In this document: positions 47,110 through 54,943 of the stretch, one piece after another
Layout of the letters: each line of letters begins with the position of its first letter
Position numbering within the stretch: the stretch's first letter is position 1
Source: Nitrosopumilus sp.
Lineage (GTDB): Archaea > Thermoproteota > Nitrososphaeria > Nitrososphaerales > Nitrosopumilaceae
Assembly: GCA_965249555.1 (NCBI GenBank)
Contig: OZ252243.1
Span: 896,001 to 960,000 of the forward strand
Length of the DNA stretch: 64,000 bases
Reading direction: 5' to 3'
Made by a program: the position numbers and the translations under genes
Notes under the pieces: model-generated
Told to the model about the DNA's origin: nothing
What the model saw: only the letters and a program-made list of their open reading frames with translations
The model's database searches: none

Positions 47110-47302
47110 GTTATTTATCACTTAATTATTGCCCACAAACTGGACATTGAATATTTTGGTTAGGTTTAGCAGGATGTATTTCATTTTCTGATGGGGAAAA
47201 ATCATGATAGTTTTGACATTCTTTGTTATAAGCTTCTTCAGAAGAATTTGCATGAATTACTTTGAAATGTGAGTGTGGATGCGTGTCTAGTCTCTGTTTT
47301 AG

Positions 47303-47411
47303 GGTACAGTGAAGTTATAGGGATACAGAAATACGGATCTTCTCTGAATTGAAATTCGTGCCTATTGTGGTTATGAGATATATGAAATCACGATCTTATT
47401 CGAATTCAAAA
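47303..47411 (+). repeat. 109-bp inverted repeat, left copy
   Basis: GGTACAGTGAAG...TATTCGAATTCAAAA is the exact reverse complement of 49799-49907. Confidence 0.95.
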
Positions 47412-47429
47412 ATTAACAGGTTTTGAAAT

Positions 47430-47702
47430 TCAGGGCTTTATCTCATCATAACATTTGTCACAAACGTTAATCTGCTTTTCTGTGTCCGGATCTTTTACCC
47501 TCTTGCCCTTCCTAATCTGCTCTTTGCACATTGAGCAGAAATTAAGTCTGTCCTCCGTAACCAATGGCTTTCCATTACATTTCTTGCAAAAATATACGGT
47601 AACAGTTGGGAACTGTGGGATGAATAATCCCAAAGCCCGTTCCTCCAAGTCATAAACGCACCTGCATCTGATACATCTGAACTTGTCTGATACGAACTCC
47701 AT
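47430..47702 (-). CDS. Cys-rich Zn-ribbon hypothetical protein
   Basis: Four CxxC motifs in 90 aa; its start overlaps the upstream stop (TAATG). Confidence 0.7.
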   Translation of the reverse strand: MEFVSDKFRCIRCRCVYDLEERALGLFIPQFPTVTVYFCKKCNGKPLVTEDRLNFCSMCKEQIRKGKRVKDPDTEKQINVCDKCYDEIKP

Positions 47703-47997: not shown

Positions 47998-49575
47998 TTA
48001 CTGGCCGATATTGACTCGTACGTAGTTGGATCGTTTGCTATCTCCTGCTTCATTAAATGCAACTACTCTGTAGACATATTTGCCATCATCTAATGACTCG
48101 ATAGTAAATGAATCCCTTGGCGAGTCATTACTTAGAGTATAGATATTACATACTGCCAAGTCTTTGGTACCACGCTCTTTACACAAGATGTTGTAACCAT
48201 CTATGGTCGAATCTTGTGGATCAGTCCAGGATAATTCTACTGTATCATTATTAGCAGATGCTTCCAAGTTTTGAGGTTTTGATGGAGGTTCGCTAGTAAT
48301 AGTTGATGATTTAACAGGGTTGGAAGGTACGGGTTCGCCAATAGTTAATAATTTAACAAAATTGGAGCGTGGTGATTCTCCGGACTCGTTAAGGGCAATT
48401 ACGCGAAAGACATAGACAGTATTGGATTTTAAATCATCAACAGTGTAACTGTTACTGACTGTTCCTGTATTTTCAATACAGGTTTTTAGACTGGATTCAG
48501 TTGCAGGGGTTCGGCATAATATCTTGTAGCCTGTAATAGAGTCATCATTAGGATTGTTCCAAGATAATTTTACTGTATTTGCATTTGATGCTACAAATGT
48601 CAAATTACTTGGTTTTGCTGGCGGTGCTAGTGATACTTGATTTCCTGAAGTTCCAAGATCAGAGAGATTGGTAATTGGTATAAACTCAGTAACCGCAGTA
48701 TCTCCACCTGAATATACAGACTTTATAGCTACAGACTTGAATAATTCTTCACCCAAAACAGTTATAGCTAAATCAACTGAAGATTTTGAATCAGGTGAAA
48801 CAACAAGATGATGTTCTATGGTTGTATCATCTGCATATTTTCCTATCAACACATAATTACTGATATCTGTGTTGTATGGACTAGTCCATTCCAGTTCTAG
48901 ACCAATAGTAGTAAAGTCTCTACCTTGTATAGTTTTAGTTTCAGGTACAGTTACTCCCTTTTTCTCAATAGAGTCAACGCTAAAAGCACGAGCAGATAAA
49001 CCACTTAATGCTACAGCAGGACTATTTCCCATAGTTGGTATTACACAGCTGCCAGTGCCGAGACTTAGATTTATCAAGCCTAGTCCCATATAGGATTTAG
49101 GTTGAATCTCTGCTACATTTAATTTCTCTATTGTTATGAGTGCTGCTTCTCCTCTACCTTGATCATTTACTGCTGATATTCTAAAATTCATAGATGGACC
49201 AGAAGTACCAGTAACTAATGCAGTTGATTCACAGATTTTCATATATGGAAATTCAGTGTAAAAATCTGGACTATCATTAGGTGCATAACCTTCTACATTA
49301 TATCTAGTGATATCAACTCTATGGGAATCCCATATTACTCTGTTAATAGAATCATTATATGAAAACTCTATATGATATCCAACGATATCACTGCTGCCAT
49401 TAGACTCTGGAGCATCCCATGTTATTACTTGGATCAATCCAGTTCCTCCACCAATAGGTAGTTCACTAATTGCTTCTAGATTACGTGGTACTGATGGAGG
49501 TTCTGATTGTGCATATGCAGAGGTTAATCCTACCACTAGAACCAGTGATAAAATTACACTTGCTACAACCTTCAT
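47998..49575 (-). CDS. Secreted fibronectin type III repeat protein
   Basis: Signal peptide (AYA-Q); repeated PPS.P.NL...LSW...I.GY.I...YVFRVIA.N..G.S..S FN3 units. Confidence 0.85.
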   Translation of the reverse strand: MKVVASVILSLVLVVGLTSAYAQSEPPSVPRNLEAISELPIGGGTGLIQVITWDAPESNGSSDIVGYHIEFSYNDSINRVIWDSHRVDITRYNVEGYAPNDSPDFYTEFPYMKICESTALVTGTSGPSMNFRISAVNDQGRGEAALITIEKLNVAEIQPKSYMGLGLINLSLGTGSCVIPTMGNSPAVALSGLSARAFSVDSIEKKGVTVPETKTIQGRDFTTIGLELEWTSPYNTDISNYVLIGKYADDTTIEHHLVVSPDSKSSVDLAITVLGEELFKSVAIKSVYSGGDTAVTEFIPITNLSDLGTSGNQVSLAPPAKPSNLTFVASNANTVKLSWNNPNDDSITGYKILCRTPATESSLKTCIENTGTVSNSYTVDDLKSNTVYVFRVIALNESGESPRSNFVKLLTIGEPVPSNPVKSSTITSEPPSKPQNLEASANNDTVELSWTDPQDSTIDGYNILCKERGTKDLAVCNIYTLSNDSPRDSFTIESLDDGKYVYRVVAFNEAGDSKRSNYVRVNIGQ

Positions 49576-49798
49576 ACAATATCCAAATACAGTAATGTAT
49601 AAGAGTATTTAGATCAATCATAGTGATCTAGCATATCTAGTGTTCAAAAGTTGACAAATATGGATTCTTATCTGGATTACCTTAACCACTTTACTGCTTT
49701 TTCATATTCTGGTATCTCCATTACTTAATTCATACAAAACTGAATTCTGTTGAGTTAAGATATTAAATCGATCTCATCTGAATTTAGAAATTAGTTGA

Positions 49799-49907
49799 TT
49801 TTGAATTCGAATAAGATCGTGATTTCATATATCTCATAACCACAATAGGCACGAATTTCAATTCAGAGAAGATCCGTATTTCTGTATCCCTATAACTTCA
49901 CTGTACC
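49799..49907 (-). repeat. 109-bp inverted repeat, right copy
   Basis: Reverse complement of 47303-47411. Confidence 0.95.
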
Positions 49908-49917
49908 TTATTGGTAA

Positions 49918-50091
49918 TTACAATCCAGATCTATCTGGAATATAGTCTGATGCCATATTGATTGCATTATCTTTCATGATTTCAAGATAGGTATCATAAT
50001 CTGCTTCAAAGTTACAGTGAGGACATTTAACTTTCGTAATTTCATCATCTAAAATTGCAACTTTTTCACACTCTGGGCACCTTGCATCCAT
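49918..50091 (-). CDS. Small Zn-ribbon protein, 57 aa (not in ORF track; probably a core gene)
   Basis: MDARCPECEKVAILDDEITKVKCPHCNFEADYDTYLEIMKDNAINMASDYIPDRSGL; divergent from the tRNA-Gly 5' fragment. Confidence 0.8.
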   Translation of the reverse strand: MDARCPECEKVAILDDEITKVKCPHCNFEADYDTYLEIMKDNAINMASDYIPDRSGL

Positions 50092-50143
50092 ATCTTAGTT
50101 TCACAATCAAGATATTTAATCATGATTATCAAATATGTCCTAA

Positions 50144-50185
50144 GTGGAGTTAGTTTAGTCTGGTATAACGTCAGCTTCCCAAGCT
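50144..50185 (+). repeat. att site: 5' half of tRNA-Gly(CCC) (direct repeat of 53330-53371)
   Basis: GGAGTTAGTTTAGTCTGGTATAACGTCAGCTTCCCAAGCT is identical at 50146-50185 and 53332-53371; one C>T difference at tRNA position 2. Confidence 0.95.
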
Positions 50186-50354
50186 CGGTGCCTACGGCGC
50201 AAGACACCTTCGGTGATAAATTGATGAGAGGTAATTCTTTTTCATAAAACATTTTTAGTTTTTTTATTGAAAATATAATTTTATACTCATAATTTTTGTT
50301 AGGATTAAAGTTTCTTGAGAGGAATTCTCGTTTTTTCTTACTAAACATAATCAT
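50146..50354 (-). pseudogene. Putative int(N) fragment of an att-partitioned (SSV-type) integrase
   Basis: MIMFSKKKREFL...ELPLI...ELGKLTLYQTKLTP runs antisense into the att repeat; after in-silico circularisation the frame continues at the other end. Confidence 0.5.
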
Positions 50355-50423
50355 ATCAGTAAACAACTAGATCTTAAAAATATTTATTCCCATATCACTT
50401 ACTTTTTAACCTAAAGAAAAAAA

Positions 50424-50711
50424 ATGAATATGTTGCAGAAGTTAAAAACTAATCTTTTACCTGAAATTAAAATACAAAATACTGTTTGTACTGCAGATCT
50501 TAACCAGAAAATAAACATTGCAGAATTTAACAGATATTATTTTTTGAGCTGCAATCTAGATCTGTATAGATGTGGGTATGTAAAGGATGATTCCATGATA
50601 GGAAGAACCACTGTGTTTGCAAATGGAAAATTAATTTCAGTTGGAACAAAAAGCCAAAAAGAAGCCATTAAGAAATTAAAAAAACTTGTAACAATAGTTA
50701 CACAGAAATAA
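50424..50711 (+). CDS. TATA-binding-protein-like protein, single TBP repeat (possibly truncated)
   Basis: IKIQNTVCTADL...TTVFANGKLISVGTKS matches the TBP repeat pattern I.NIVAS..L...LIF.SGK.V.TG.KS. Confidence 0.7.
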   Translation: MNMLQKLKTNLLPEIKIQNTVCTADLNQKINIAEFNRYYFLSCNLDLYRCGYVKDDSMIGRTTVFANGKLISVGTKSQKEAIKKLKKLVTIVTQK

Positions 50712-51988
50712 TTCTAATTCCTTCCCAGAGTCTTATTATTTTTCCTTCTATTCTCCCTATTGTTGATTCAATACCAAACTTTTGGGAAACTTTGTAATTG
50801 AAAGCTTTTTCTTTTTTTGGAGTGATTTTATTTTTCTTACACCACTTGCAAAATACCTGAAAGATGGAGACCTTGGAAGTTTGTCTCAAAATCCTGCTCA
50901 ACACAAGAATCCAAAAATGTGTCTATCGGATTGGCTTTTTGTGTCCAAATTTCTTGTAATTTTGAGGTATTTTCATCATATGTCAATTTTCCATTTTTCT
51001 TTATTTTTTGAATATATAGAAGAAGTAAATTTAGAATTCCTGAAAGTTTATGTTCTGTTGTTAATTCGTTGAAAAGATTTTGATTAATTTTGTATTTTTT
51101 ATTCTGATGAGTAAATTGTTGATTCCATTCAATCAAAACTAATCTTCGATAAACTGCATGTGAGTTTTCACCAAGTTCAGGTAATTCATTACATGAAAAG
51201 ATCGACTTTGCAGTGTTTCTCATCTTAAATCTATGTTGATTTTTCCTTTGAACTTCTATGGAGTCACTACTGATGATTGCTTTGATGGTGCCAAGTTCAG
51301 GAATTTCTCTTCTTGAAATATCTGCATAGATGTTTGCAAGTTTACTATCTAATCCAGCTTTTGCAAATCGATCTGATTCCATATCATGAATTGAGATATT
51401 AGAAACATTTTCTGAGCCTAAAAATCGTTCCATAACATTCAAGCAGGTACTTTTTCCATTAGCACCAGATCCTACATTCATGAACATTTTTTCTAGATGG
51501 ATATTTGGGAGTAATATAGAGGCAAACGCTTCTAATGCAGATATCTTATTTTTCTCCTCAGGAAGGCATTGATCTAAAAACCTCTGGAATTGTTCACATA
51601 TAGCATTTTGATCATATGTTACTGGTAGCTGAATTCTGAAAAGGAAGTTTGAAGAATGTGGTTGAAGTTGTTCTGTCTTTAAATTAAGAATTCCATTTCT
51701 TAGATTTATCAAGTTTTCATAACTATCAAATTCTTGATCTCGTGAAACATGTGTTTCTCGTCTAATAGTATTGATCACTTCTTTGCAATTGTGAGTTTTA
51801 CAGTCTGGAATTATTTTTTGGCATTCTTCTTTAATTATGATTTCTCCTCCACTTTTGTAGATACCATCTTCATAGACTAGAACTTGTTCAGAATCCCTTA
51901 AGGTCTTGAAATGAAAGGAGTTTCGGATAATGTCTGCATAATGACCATTTCCATACCTAATTTCACTCATTTTTAACTCAATTTCCAT
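50698..51988 (-). pseudogene. P4/D5-family (SF3) helicase of plasmid/virus primase-helicase type, frameshifted near the C-terminus
   Basis: INLRNGILNL D5_N motif, GSGANGKST Walker A, SCNELP, RRLVLI; the winged-helix-like tail (FCKWCKKNKI) lies in another frame after about 50880. Confidence 0.8.
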
Positions 51989-52200
51989 TGTGCTTCAATA
52001 ATTTCATTATTGCGATTATTGAAAGATATTTCCAATGCCCTGAACATGTCGTTTGAATTGTTATTTGTTGTTAGCATGATCTTTTCTATGGGAAAATCCA
52101 GATCTAAATACCTTTGTAGTAATTTTCTCAAAAAATATTTTTTCGGTTTGACTATAGAAATTGCAATTTGATTTTCTTTATGTTAAATTTTTTAAAATTA

Positions 52201-52746
52201 TTATTTTAACTCTGGGAATATGTCTGCATACATTAGTTTGAATTTGTCTTTTCTTTTTATTTCGGCAATTTGGTACTGATATTTTTTATAAAAATTAACT
52301 GCATCTTTAGTAAATAATACAATATATCTACATCCTACTTTGTCTGAGATAATTCGTGCTAATCCATTACACCATAATAATACATATTCTCCAAAACCTT
52401 TTCCTCTAAATTTTTTGTCAATACAAAAATCAAGAATTACTAATGCAGGATATAGATTGCCGTCACGAGTGGCAGGTCTCTTTTTTTTAATTATTTTATC
52501 TTTGTGAATATTAGATGTAGCTACTGTAACATAACCAATAGAATTTTTCTTGTAAGTTATGATGTAAGTAGTACCAAGATGTGCAGTTTGATTTTTTAAT
52601 GCTCTTTTATCAATAAAATATTGTAAGCATTGAGTGTCTTCACCTAATTCATTGGTACAATCAAAATGAGGTTTATGACTAGATTTTAATTTTGGAAAGC
52701 CAAATGCATCTTCGTCAATTTGAAATTTAGTTGAAGAACTAGCCAT
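52201..52746 (-). CDS. GNAT N-acetyltransferase, AtaT/TacT-like toxin type
   Basis: FDC...LQYF, IGYVTV, YPALVILDFCIDKKFRGKGFG, VGCRYIVL, AVNFYKKY. Confidence 0.75.
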   Translation of the reverse strand: MASSSTKFQIDEDAFGFPKLKSSHKPHFDCTNELGEDTQCLQYFIDKRALKNQTAHLGTTYIITYKKNSIGYVTVATSNIHKDKIIKKKRPATRDGNLYPALVILDFCIDKKFRGKGFGEYVLLWCNGLARIISDKVGCRYIVLFTKDAVNFYKKYQYQIAEIKRKDKFKLMYADIFPELK

Positions 52747-52774
52747 AAAAATTATGAATGTGTGTAGGTAATTA

Positions 52775-52936
52775 TTACTTACTTTTTGGTGCTTGTCTTG
52801 GTTGACAGTGTTTGAGATAAAACTTCTCAGATTTTTTAAAATAAGCTATCTCTTCTGGTGTTGCTTGTCTTTTCTGATATTTTTCAAATGCTTTTGCATT
52901 CTTGCCTGTAAGTACAATTGGTTCATTTGGATTCAT
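52775..52936 (-). CDS. Small putative antitoxin, 53 aa (not in ORF track)
   Basis: MNPNEPIVLTGKNAKAFEKYQKRQATPEEIAYFKKSEKFYLKHCQPRQAPKSK, ending 28 bp upstream of the GNAT gene on the same strand. Confidence 0.55.
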   Translation of the reverse strand: MNPNEPIVLTGKNAKAFEKYQKRQATPEEIAYFKKSEKFYLKHCQPRQAPKSK

Positions 52937-53246
52937 TATGTCATATACTCCTGTATAGAACGATTTTCTGATGTCATTATTAAATTAAGCATCTGATTTT
53001 CTCCTAGATTTTTTATAGATCCTTCTAGAGATAAGGTAGAATCTGTATTAGTTGAGCATAGACAGTTTTGCAGCATAAAATAGGCATAATCTGATTCCAT
53101 CATTTGATATTTCACAGTAAGGAGATCTAAGAAACAGGGACTGATATAATTGACATTATTGATAAATATCATCTTGCATATCTTGCATTTTTGTTAGAGT
53201 ATAACCAGTTCTTGTATGCCGGATCGGCAGACAAACCTTGGAGGGC

Positions 53247-53288
53247 CTTACTAAAAACAGTAAGATCCATCTTACTGAATTCAGTAAG
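53247..53288. repeat. Tandem palindromes CTTACT-N6-AGTAAG-N6-CTTACT-N6-AGTAAG
   Basis: Read directly: CTTACT aaaaac AGTAAG atccat CTTACT gaattc AGTAAG. Confidence 0.85.
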
Positions 53289-53329
53289 AGGAAAATTGTT
53301 TTTAGAGGGCTGACCGAAGGTCTGCGCAG

Positions 53330-53403
53330 GCGGAGTTAGTTTAGTCTGGTATAACGTCAGCTTCCCAAGCTGAAGGCCGCGGGTTCAAATCCCGCACTCC
53401 GCA
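53330..53403 (+). tRNA. tRNA-Gly(CCC)
   Basis: GCGGAGT/ACTCCGC acceptor stem, anticodon arm TCAGC-TTCCCAA-GCTGA, GTTCAAATC T loop. Confidence 0.95.
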
Positions 53404-54366
53404 TCATAGTTCTCTAATTGCTTGTTCTATTACTCCTCTATCTGGGGCTTGCGGAAAATATTTCAAATAACTTTTGAGATCCTCTTTTGCATCAGAATTT
53501 TTATTTTGTTTTTCTCTAAGATAAGCACGGTTTTTGTAAATTTTAGCAGATCTTTTTGGATTAATTTCAATAGATTTAGTGTAATAATTCTCTGCCTTTT
53601 CAAATTGATTTGTTTTAAGATAAAAATTTCCTAGACCATTGTATGTTAGATATGATCTGTGGTTGATTTCCAAGGATTTTTCATAAAACTTGATACATTC
53701 AGAAGAGTTTTGTTCATTCATCATTGAACCCAATAGATGTAAAGCAGTTGAGTTGTTTGGATCAAGTACTATAGCTTGCTTTAGTAATTCAAGTGCTTCA
53801 GAGGAATTCTTTAGAATATTTAATTTCTCAGAGGTAAAACACAATCGATTTGATTTGTTATTAGAATCATTTTCAAGTTTTACAGAAGACAAAATTTCTA
53901 GTGGGGCCAATATTATCATTAATCTTCCTTCCTCTGACCATTCCTTGTCAAAGATATCTTGCGGTATGGCTCCTTCTTGTTGTTCTCCTTCTTGATTACC
54001 TTTCTGGATATAATGAAGGATTGTCTTTTCTTCATCATTATAGCCTGTAATGACAGATGCATGTTGTGTAATTTCTGGAATTCCTGGAAGAATAACAATT
54101 GGAGGTATTCCAGAATCAATAATTTTTTTTAATTCAGATAGAGATGAATGAATTATTTTGCATGTAAGACCATGTCTTTCTGCAGATTCTATTCCTTCAA
54201 TTAGAACACTACCATTAGATTCTGAATATTGTTTTGCAGTTTCTATGGCTTCAGCCATAGGTAATTCAATATTCCAATATTTTGAAACCACGTTAATAGG
54301 CAATGGAAGACAAATATTCTCTTCATCAACAAGAGGCAATAATAATTCATGGCTTTCTTGTTCCAT
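53404..54366 (-). CDS. Peptidase C39-like domain plus TPR repeat protein
   Basis: ENICLP, QHASVITGY, followed by TPR repeats. Confidence 0.8.
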   Translation of the reverse strand: MEQESHELLLPLVDEENICLPLPINVVSKYWNIELPMAEAIETAKQYSESNGSVLIEGIESAERHGLTCKIIHSSLSELKKIIDSGIPPIVILPGIPEITQHASVITGYNDEEKTILHYIQKGNQEGEQQEGAIPQDIFDKEWSEEGRLMIILAPLEILSSVKLENDSNNKSNRLCFTSEKLNILKNSSEALELLKQAIVLDPNNSTALHLLGSMMNEQNSSECIKFYEKSLEINHRSYLTYNGLGNFYLKTNQFEKAENYYTKSIEINPKRSAKIYKNRAYLREKQNKNSDAKEDLKSYLKYFPQAPDRGVIEQAIREL

Positions 54367-54400
54367 GAAATGAGGAAATTTTGAGAGTTATTAAAATCAA

Positions 54401-54943
54401 TCAGAGAGAACAGAATTTTTCAATCAAATCATGACCATCTTGACTCATCTCTGGATGAAATTGAGTCCCAAAAATTTGCTTTTTTTCATATTGAATGATT
54501 TCGTATTTGCAATTCTTCGAGTCTGCAAGCGGAACTAGTACACCAGGTAACTTGGATATCTCGAATATATGACTCTCAAAGACGGTTAAAGAGTCATTTG
54601 AGATTGAATTTTCTTTAGAAATCGTGATTATTTCATTTCCTTTTTGAAGTGATGAAATCCTTCTGATTGTTCCTCCCAAAGTAAGTGCCAAAATTTCGGC
54701 ACCATAGCAAATTCCAAGTAATTTCATGTTGTTTTTAATTGAATAAATAACAATTTTAGAATTGATTTCATTAGTCTTTTTTTCATTTTTTCTTCTTCCA
54801 GATAGAATTACAGAATCATAATTTTCAAGTGAGTTTAGATCTAAAAGTTGAGGAGTTTGTTTTTCAAAAGAAATATTTTTTTTATTTAAAAAATCAGTTA
54901 AATTTTTTGTATATATGGAACCGTTATCAACAACTAGAAGCAA
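54401..54943 (-). CDS. Class I glutamine amidotransferase
   Basis: VVDNGS, LGICYG, GTQFHPE. Confidence 0.9.
   Translation of the reverse strand: MLLVVDNGSIYTKNLTDFLNKKNISFEKQTPQLLDLNSLENYDSVILSGRRKNEKKTNEINSKIVIYSIKNNMKLLGICYGAEILALTLGGTIRRISSLQKGNEIITISKENSISNDSLTVFESHIFEISKLPGVLVPLADSKNCKYEIIQYEKKQIFGTQFHPEMSQDGHDLIEKFCSL

Follow-up and report, generated by a model that had tools for sequence, protein, structure and literature searches.

Split SSV-type integrase gene and a candidate replacement promoter at the interrupted tRNA-Gly(CCC) locus of a Nitrosopumilus genome

In the 64,000-nt stretch of the Nitrosopumilus sp. genome analysed here (GenBank assembly GCA_965249555.1, contig OZ252243.1, positions 896,001 to 960,000 of the forward strand; henceforth the window, whose numbering is used throughout), the front part of the gene for tRNA-Gly(CCC) occurs twice, the partial copy being the upstream one and the intact gene the downstream one. 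This locus raises two connected questions: what brought about the duplication, and what could drive transcription of the intact gene if the DNA in front of it is foreign? A preliminary description of the window had proposed a mini-element integrated in the 5' half of the tRNA gene and taking over its promoter. Our comparison with related genomes shows that the DNA between the two copies is indeed an insertion whose ends carry the parts of an integrase gene partitioned by integration, and suggests that it descends from a family of elements with SSV-type (Sulfolobus spindle-shaped virus) integrases. The genome carrying the window (G000) is a single contig of 2.23 Mb; other genomes and loci are given by handles of the G and L type. 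The geometry of the locus is defined by three features (att, attachment site):

50186..53371, no strand: integrated element, 3,186 bp counting one att copy; absent from 15 relatives of the same genus, in which the flanks join exactly at the 42-nt att
50144..50185, plus strand: attL, the orphan nucleotides 1-42 of tRNA-Gly(CCC) with T for C at position 2 (from the repeat comparison and the empty sites)
53330..53403, plus strand: intact tRNA-Gly(CCC), whose first 42 nt are attR (ARAGORN; Rfam RF00005, 74.1 bits)

The 40 nt at 50146-50185 recur without a difference at 53332-53371, 3,186 bp downstream. None of 100 shuffled controls gave any match to set against this repeat, and the whole 2.23-Mb genome holds no copies beyond these two. 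Stretched by two bases to the tRNA start, the repeat reaches 42 nt, all but one of them matching (at position 2, 50145 has T and 53331 has C), and corresponds to nucleotides 1-42 of tRNA-Gly(CCC), that is, through the anticodon loop and 4 nt into the 3' strand of the anticodon stem, as the preliminary description had it. The downstream gene is the only Gly tRNA with a CCC anticodon called by ARAGORN in the genome, which also encodes tRNA-Gly(UCC); neither ARAGORN nor Rfam called a tRNA at the orphan copy. The agreement of attL with attR is 41/42 nt in G000 and 42/42 in the relative G004. In another genome, G151 (L071), the intact tRNA-Gly(CCC) and the orphan copy both begin with GCGGTGT and the 3' acceptor strand reads ACTCCGC, so that the working tRNA has a U5-U68 mismatch in its acceptor stem.

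The region 49000-54800 was searched against 41 genomes (G000 and 40 relatives), and in many genomes of the same genus the left flank (to 50185) and the right flank (from 53330) were found to overlap by 42 nt. Loci were retrieved from 19 relatives, with a tRNA called by ARAGORN in 16 and three loci stopping short of the tRNA. In 15 of these 16 the Zn-ribbon gene, 'aagatatttaatcat' and tRNA-Gly(CCC) are contiguous; in the remaining one (G004) related element DNA sits upstream of the tRNA gene. The 15 empty sites thus carry the Zn-ribbon gene, promoter, tRNA and TPR gene side by side, an adjacency anticipated in the preliminary description, and lack the sequence present at 53288-53329 of the window upstream of their tRNA-Gly, a sequence whose presence there would, according to the preliminary description, have refuted its reading. 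Their tRNAs all start with GCGGAGT or GCGGAAT; a mutation acquired later, in a copy out of use, is therefore the simplest origin of the T found at position 2 of the orphan copy. The G+C content of the element (0.26-0.33) is below that of the left flank (0.34-0.39). Overall, these observations show that the 3,186-bp segment is an insertion into the 5' half of tRNA-Gly(CCC). An assembly artefact, which the preliminary description had named as a possible undoing of its own reading, is unlikely, the genome being a single contig and the architecture being found again within large contigs of G151 and G308. Outside the insertion, the intergenic DNA to the left of the Zn-ribbon gene (49615-49913) carries dispersed repeats, with a 94%-identical copy on the opposite strand at 47300-47433 and more copies at five other places in the genome (81-90% identity); synteny with the relatives breaks off at about 49908.

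The agent of the insertion, absent from the preliminary description, was recognised through the comparison with G004. A short open reading frame (ORF) toward attL is common to G000 and G004 (M[LF]SK..R.[FY]LS....PNKNYEYKII), and in G004 an ORF of 249 aa adjoins attR; this led to the identification of a split integrase, two parts of which are present in the window:

50144..50348, minus strand: int(N), the N-terminal part of the split integrase (ATG at 50348; the frame runs through attL into host DNA, stop at 50049)
53172..53371, minus strand: int(C) remnant, the first 66 codons including att, ending in TGA and without the catalytic domain (from the comparison with G004)

When the circular form was simulated by a script concatenating the right end, att and the left end, the G004 circle contained a single open minus-strand frame of about 345 aa through att, and the G000 circle had the same frame through att, terminating after ...LSADPAYKNWLYSNKNARYAR (...ARYAR*). 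Since the script-joined ends give one open frame through att, attP (the att of the circle) is located inside the integrase gene, which is split by integration. The int(N) peptide (MFSKKKREFLSRNFNPNKNYEYKII...) has homologues in int(N) of the elements in G004, G151 and G308; in the latter two, int(C) and int(N) likewise occupy opposite ends of the element, and the peptide encoded by att is shared and lies in the same frame. The int(C) stub of G000 (53369-53172) has 68% identity to residues 1-66 of the G004 integrase, and residues 67-294 of the latter have no counterpart anywhere in the G000 element. A family search of 401 Nitrosopumilaceae genomes found only this stub and no other homologue of the split integrase in the G000 genome. 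Likewise, no integrase domain was found among the ORFs of the element, and the PF00589 matches of this genome are located elsewhere. This analysis shows that the integrase gene was partitioned by integration and that its catalytic part was then lost in G000.

Integrase homologues were found in 24 of the 401 genomes searched (7 of 27 genera), and 148 stretches of marine metagenomes encode relatives of the split integrase. PF16795 (Phage_integr_3, archaeal SSV-type) matches 14 of 20 aligned members of the family (best E 2.9e-11), and PF00589 none of the 20. (The unpublished genome G294 contributed one of the 20, L049, and no conclusion is based on it alone.) An AlphaFold model of the G004 integrase (predicted local distance difference test, pLDDT, 79.8) had the catalytic domain of the SSV1 integrase as its best fold match in the PDB (3uxu, E 8.9e-4, template-modelling score, TM, 0.67 on the target; also 3vcf), with XerA and HP1 integrase ranking after it. 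The family alignment A1 has invariant R171, K200, R237, R259/R260 and Y268 (numbering of the family alignment), which fall in the motifs SGLRT, TKK, LRK and GRRG..S..HY and are candidates for the catalytic residues of tyrosine recombinases (Arg, Lys, His/Tyr-x-x-Arg, Tyr). As judged from these profiles and the model, the elements are carriers of SSV-type ('suicidal', type I) tyrosine integrases and are widespread in Nitrosopumilaceae. Other members have int(C) frames that open in peptides of the antisense tRNA T-arm type (GIRTPID, ERGTNPRPNAYE), with no intact tRNA adjoining, and by their sequence represent the usual arrangement with a duplicated 3' half. Thus, a single family would include some members targeting the 3' halves of other tRNAs and one group targeting the 5' half of tRNA-Gly(CCC).

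Complete relatives of the G000 element within large contigs measure 5,297 bp (G151) and 5,051 bp (G308), and carry different cargo; that of G308 includes a restriction-modification set, in which a putative DNA methyltransferase, named from sequence, stands beside two small ORFs (L072 3446-5035). The G004 cargo (L030 4542-5453) includes a fusion of zinc ribbons with an Mrr-type restriction endonuclease. We read both the endonuclease and the putative methyltransferase set as candidate defence cargo.

Overall, we consider it likely that the window contains a stranded remnant of an SSV-type element with a split integrase gene and a replacement TATA-like box, which decayed after integration. In the proposed course of events, the integrase frame of a free circle would run antisense to the tRNA and contain attP, an exact match to nucleotides 1-42 of tRNA-Gly(CCC). 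The circle would recombine with the chromosomal tRNA gene, probably at the anticodon stem-loop, by analogy with SSV1, for which strand exchange at the anticodon loop is known from passages of PMC8371274; the mismatches between attL and attR (position 2 in G000; positions 5, 31 and 40 in G308) form patterns that leave the crossover point unfixed. Integration would split the gene, placing int(N) at attL behind the orphan 5' half, which would retain the host promoter, and int(C) at attR, reading outward from a rebuilt tRNA gene with only element DNA upstream. The sequence TTTTTAG, antisense to (Thr/Ser)-Lys-Asn codons of the integrase, would then most likely drive transcription of the rebuilt tRNA. 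Later decay in G000 would have deleted the catalytic domain, leaving a 66-codon stub that bears the TATA-like box, frameshifted a helicase gene and removed the second repeat of a TATA-binding protein (TBP) homologue. Some results weigh against this account. The G004 integrase alone stays under the Pfam cut-off (18.9 vs 27 bits); a sequence-profile search of the PDB did not find the SSV1 integrase and returned chance matches only; and neither the 80 metagenome loci nor the viral contigs searched yielded a free or circular element whose integrase is unsplit.

Archaeal tRNA genes rely on upstream TATA/BRE promoters (BRE, B recognition element). TATA-like sequences had been noted ahead of both in the preliminary description, and both are there:

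50109..50120, plus strand: native tRNA-Gly promoter AAGATATTTAAT, with TATTTAA at -31..-25 of the orphan half and ATATTTAAT at 50112-50120; corresponds to 'aagatatttaatcat' of the empty sites
53299..53306, plus strand: element-borne TATA-like box TTTTTAGA, at -31..-24 of the intact tRNA and antisense to the integrase codons Ser-Lys-Asn; its position is that of the native TATTTAA

The native promoter is similar to AAGATTTTAA, the consensus obtained from 35 regions upstream of tRNAs in the G000 genome, and 'aagatatttaatcat' not only immediately precedes tRNA-Gly(CCC) at the 15 empty sites but also occurs at attL of five other occupied sites. At attR, TTTTTAG occupies -31..-25 of the intact tRNA, the same offset as that of the native TATTTAA at attL. 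Read-through cannot serve the intact tRNA because the element genes adjoining attR are all on the opposite strand.

The position of the element-borne box is conserved. TTTTTA is found at -31..-26 in all 10 aligned genomic attR sites (G000, G004, G151, G308, G424, G205, two in G359 and two in G220), and the 23-nt spacer in these sites represents at least four unrelated sequence types. In the metagenome set, 31 loci with int(C) beside tRNA-Gly(CCC) yielded 24 distinct upstream sequences. TTTTTA is exactly at -31..-26 in 19 of them and shifted by 1 nt in two, which use another reading frame across att, and the remaining three carry different A/T-rich boxes (TTTATAG, TATAATTAG and GATAAATAG). All 24 have T at -27, and the spacer columns are highly variable in sequence, not in length; even members whose linker is about 15 codons shorter retain the spacer of 23 nt, their indels falling beyond the box rather than between the box and the tRNA. 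Between att and a conserved W-L anchor, TTTTTA[AG] was present in 7 of 8 members of the Gly-5' group vs 1 of 16 members targeting other tRNAs, a count that leaves out six loci without the anchor and includes a control (L047) whose anchor was placed early, with little sequence scanned. At the codon level, the Lys codon within the box is AAA in 18/18 sequences with the motif located (six sequences were unmatched by the pattern), whereas in the same genes AAA accounts for 57% of the Lys codons overall and for 38% of those at five conserved positions. Based on these comparisons, TTTTTAG probably serves as the promoter of the intact tRNA-Gly(CCC).

Several observations tell against a promoter role of the box. 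An eleventh genomic element, in G089, has GAAATAGT in place of the motif. The bases just 5' of the element T-run (ATTG/ATCA) differ from the AAGA of host tRNA promoters. A position weight matrix (PWM) built from the 35 host tRNA upstream regions found its best site in the element (4.7) at -44 and not at TTTTTAG; the native promoter itself scored 4.3, with the 95th percentile of random positions at 6.3. The matrix counts neither way, since the native and the element promoters are both indistinguishable from background. The motif counts overstate independence, as the sequences are related and some genomic loci reappear among the metagenome ones (L073 matches G004 at 100% identity), and, the motif being located in coding sequence, protein constraint could explain part of its conservation.

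The last point leads to an alternative in which TTTTTAG reflects nothing other than constraint on the Thr/Ser-Lys-Asn residues of the integrase, while the rebuilt tRNA-Gly(CCC) is weakly transcribed or silent and GGG codons are read by tRNA-Gly(UCC). The coding location, the failure of the PWM to discriminate, the presence of tRNA-Gly(UCC) in the genome and the absence of the motif from G089 would all agree with it. On the other hand, the synonymous site of Lys is fixed as AAA, and the two sequences that use the other att frame still hold the motif within 1 nt. In addition, the residue before Lys varies (T/S/I/G) and the A/T pattern persists, the motif is found in just one of the 16 members that need not supply a promoter, and the tRNA sequence itself is still intact by its Rfam score. 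We regard this alternative as unlikely and continue with TTTTTAG as a probable promoter. With respect to the promoter takeover proposed in the preliminary description, the arrangement stands, as the native promoter fronts the orphan half and the intact tRNA follows element DNA with a box conserved in the family; transcription from two promoters is expected rather than observed. We infer that the box is active as a promoter, that the orphan half is transcribed and that selection has kept the stub; the place of the crossover is likewise deduced.

A broader reading, joining these points, can be offered tentatively, with slightly less than even confidence. The (Thr/Ser)-Lys-Asn codons of the integrase would be dual-coding, doubling as a TATA box aimed at the first base of the tRNA, and this box would make the targeting of a 5' half by an antisense suicidal integrase workable. 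The host tRNA would then depend on element DNA, and the int(C) stub might be kept on that account as a domesticated tRNA promoter; dependence of the host tRNA on the stub's promoter would explain why 66 codons survive where the catalytic domain was lost. The displaced host promoter, for its part, might fire an antisense RNA across int(N), composed of the tRNA 5' half and ~60-90 nt up to the T-runs at 50235-50270.

Two further sequence features around att were considered. A leader hairpin (GACCGAAGGTC in G000 and AACCGAAGGTT in G004), which had the look of compensatory pairing, is broken in G308 and G359, and the stretch codes for QTFG; it was rejected. An imperfect inverted repeat surrounds att (e.g. 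..TCTGCGCAG[att]..GCGCAAGA) and may represent integrase binding sites or the relic of a once-complete tRNA copy, the latter option being based on the attP side of G151, where 60 nt align with the tRNA at 87% identity.

The remaining genes of the element bear on whether it is a remnant at all:

50424..50711, plus strand: TBP-like ORF (95 aa), probably truncated, which has no more than the first TBP repeat (PF00352, E 6e-9)
50698..51988, minus strand: P4/D5-type primase-helicase (D5_N plus DUF5906/SF3, superfamily 3) with a frameshift near 50840-50900 (PF08706, PF19263, phrog_864, TIGR01613)
52201..52746, minus strand: GNAT acetyltransferase, cargo (PF13508, 3e-6; phrog_1758, 7e-16)
52775..52936, minus strand: ORF of 53 aa upstream of the GNAT gene, with a homologue upstream of the GNAT homologue in G017

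The helicase (3e-76 with phrog_864 and 1e-46 with TIGR01613) is in two pieces relative to an intact 445-aa homologue in G004, one of 383 aa corresponding to residues 8-379 and another of 68 aa, in a different frame, corresponding to residues 376-432. G015 encodes a two-repeat TBP paralogue of 206 aa, and the TBP-like product is 60% identical to its residues 25-113. Family searches gave no match for the 53-aa ORF, and the remaining ORFs of the element are small and without family matches.

These genes have to be weighed against the view, put forward in the preliminary description, that the 3,186-bp unit is satellite- or plasmid-like, that is, a working non-autonomous mini-element (a satellite or miniplasmid) whose circle is excised by an integrase acting in trans. 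Both att copies are nearly intact, the family is common in marine metagenomes, and passages of PMC8371274 describe how elements with split integrases are excised by a related integrase that enters the cell. On the other hand, three genes of the unit are truncated or frameshifted (integrase, helicase and TBP), the G000 genome has no family integrase, and intact family members are at least 5 kb long with an integrase of their own. Nor does the 3.2-kb unit recur as a whole in the 40 relatives searched, in which only the helicase (G004) and the GNAT module (G017) match, separately. The satellite or plasmid view is unsupported because of the truncated integrase and TBP, the frameshifted helicase and the failure to find the unit whole, and we hold it to be quite improbable. 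By the state of its reading frames, the element of the window is rather a stranded, ordinary decaying remnant of elements of 5 kb and larger, predicted to be unable to excise by itself; an integrase supplied in trans by a superinfecting relative could still excise it, by analogy with the systems just mentioned.

Split tRNA genes of the Nanoarchaeum type consist of separate 5'- and 3'-half genes with a complementary trailer and leader and no intact gene. That no mobile element is involved, the repeat being a local partial tRNA duplication, an assembly artefact or such a split-tRNA arrangement, has only the bare repeat in its favour and a negligible chance of being right, given empty sites of relatives that meet exactly at att, homologous elements with the same ends in other genera, a single-contig genome, and an intact tRNA accompanied by one extra 5' half, without a 3'-half gene or other copies in the genome, a half that is absent from relatives.

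The preferred reading, a decayed SSV-type element, can be set against known systems. SSV1 duplicates the downstream half of tRNA-Arg, and the tRNA keeps its promoter; in contrast, the upstream half is duplicated at the present locus, the host is mesophilic and marine, and the element carries no virus genes. A bacterial element with reversed tRNA target orientation, attributed to Zhao & Williams 2002, reportedly displaces the 5' part of the tRNA, must bring a promoter and has a classical unsplit integrase; both types thus displace the 5' part of a tRNA, with an unsplit integrase in the bacterial and a split one in the archaeal case. Split SSV-type ('suicidal') integrases are already known as a kind, and are well described in PMC8371274 and Badel 2020 (PMC7253208). 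According to passages of PMC8371274, they are known mainly from hyperthermophilic archaea. SSV1 and other fuselloviruses share with the present family a PF16795-type catalytic domain, an attP within the gene, int(N) and int(C) parts and a tRNA att of 40-50 bp. Passages of PMC8371274 also indicate that int(C) of described elements could be read from the tRNA promoter, which implies a relative orientation opposite to that of the G000-type elements.

The pTN3/TKV4-type elements of Thermococcales, in the passages of Cossu et al. 2017 (PMC5495485), likewise have attP in an integrase gene split on integration and an att that covers about 41 bp of a tRNA gene. They reside in hyperthermophilic Euryarchaeota, whereas in the G000 type the integrase runs antisense to the tRNA with a TATA-like box in its frame; the main-text passages of that article, figure and supplements apart, contain no analysis of a replacement promoter. 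Closer by host are the thaumarchaeal cryptic integrated elements of Krupovic et al. 2019 (PMC6563490), which, in the text passages of that study, are likewise small, with an integrase and a replication protein, no virus or conjugation genes, a tRNA site and an ammonia-oxidising host. All but one of its tRNA-targeting thaumarchaeal elements are in the 3'-distal region, the single 5'-distal case being CalSub-E1 (tRNA-Ser) and the single SSV1-like split integrase being that of NitEve-E3. The text of PMC6563490 makes no mention of tRNA-Gly, TATA or TBP, and family members may still be listed in its Table S2. Among titles and abstracts of the literature on Nitrosopumilus with SSV-type or suicidal integrases, we found no description of the G000-type integrase family.

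What appears to be new is a marine mesophilic suicidal integrase that targets the 5' half of a tRNA and has a positionally conserved TATA-like box antisense in its own frame, as predicted from the alignments. Many family members have the front half of a single tRNA gene as their target. Should the box within the integrase gene work, a mobile element can displace the promoter of a host gene and leave the host unharmed, protein-coding and promoter information would overlap under joint selection, and leftover element DNA would have turned into an indispensable part of a host gene.

A few further observations concern the cargo and the family. A related 69-aa TBP fragment is encoded elsewhere in the G000 genome, beside a type I restriction-modification specificity gene (L007 1515-1724); this fragment, the TBP-like ORF of the element and the G015 protein look like divergent TBP paralogues, some of them on mobile DNA. 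G017 holds the same pair of GNAT and 53-aa ORF, with the GNAT gene frameshifted (L033 5483-6312). The 53-aa product is a possible antitoxin-like partner of the acetyltransferase, and the pair may be a toxin-antitoxin module aiding the persistence of the remnant.

Within the integrase family, the L037 enzyme (G124:C34) is 73% identical to that of G004 and opens in T-arm-like ..RELNPRPSAWEAE.. and not in the tRNA-Gly 5' half. This apparent target switch among close relatives would fit the int(N)/int(C) reshuffling model of Badel et al. In the metagenome loci L105, L106 and L108, the tRNA-Gly att is read in the other frame (..AWEADVLPVWTNSA.. vs ..LGKLTSYQTKLTP..), with TTTTTA within 1 nt. The complete genome G359 has three decayed int(C) stubs (L057 and L063, at C1 about 1919654-1919905 and 1939071-1939235, and C1:192552-192707), two of which adjoin copies of tRNA-Gly(CCC) about 19 kb apart and in opposite orientation; the paired copies suggest an element-mediated duplication or inversion.

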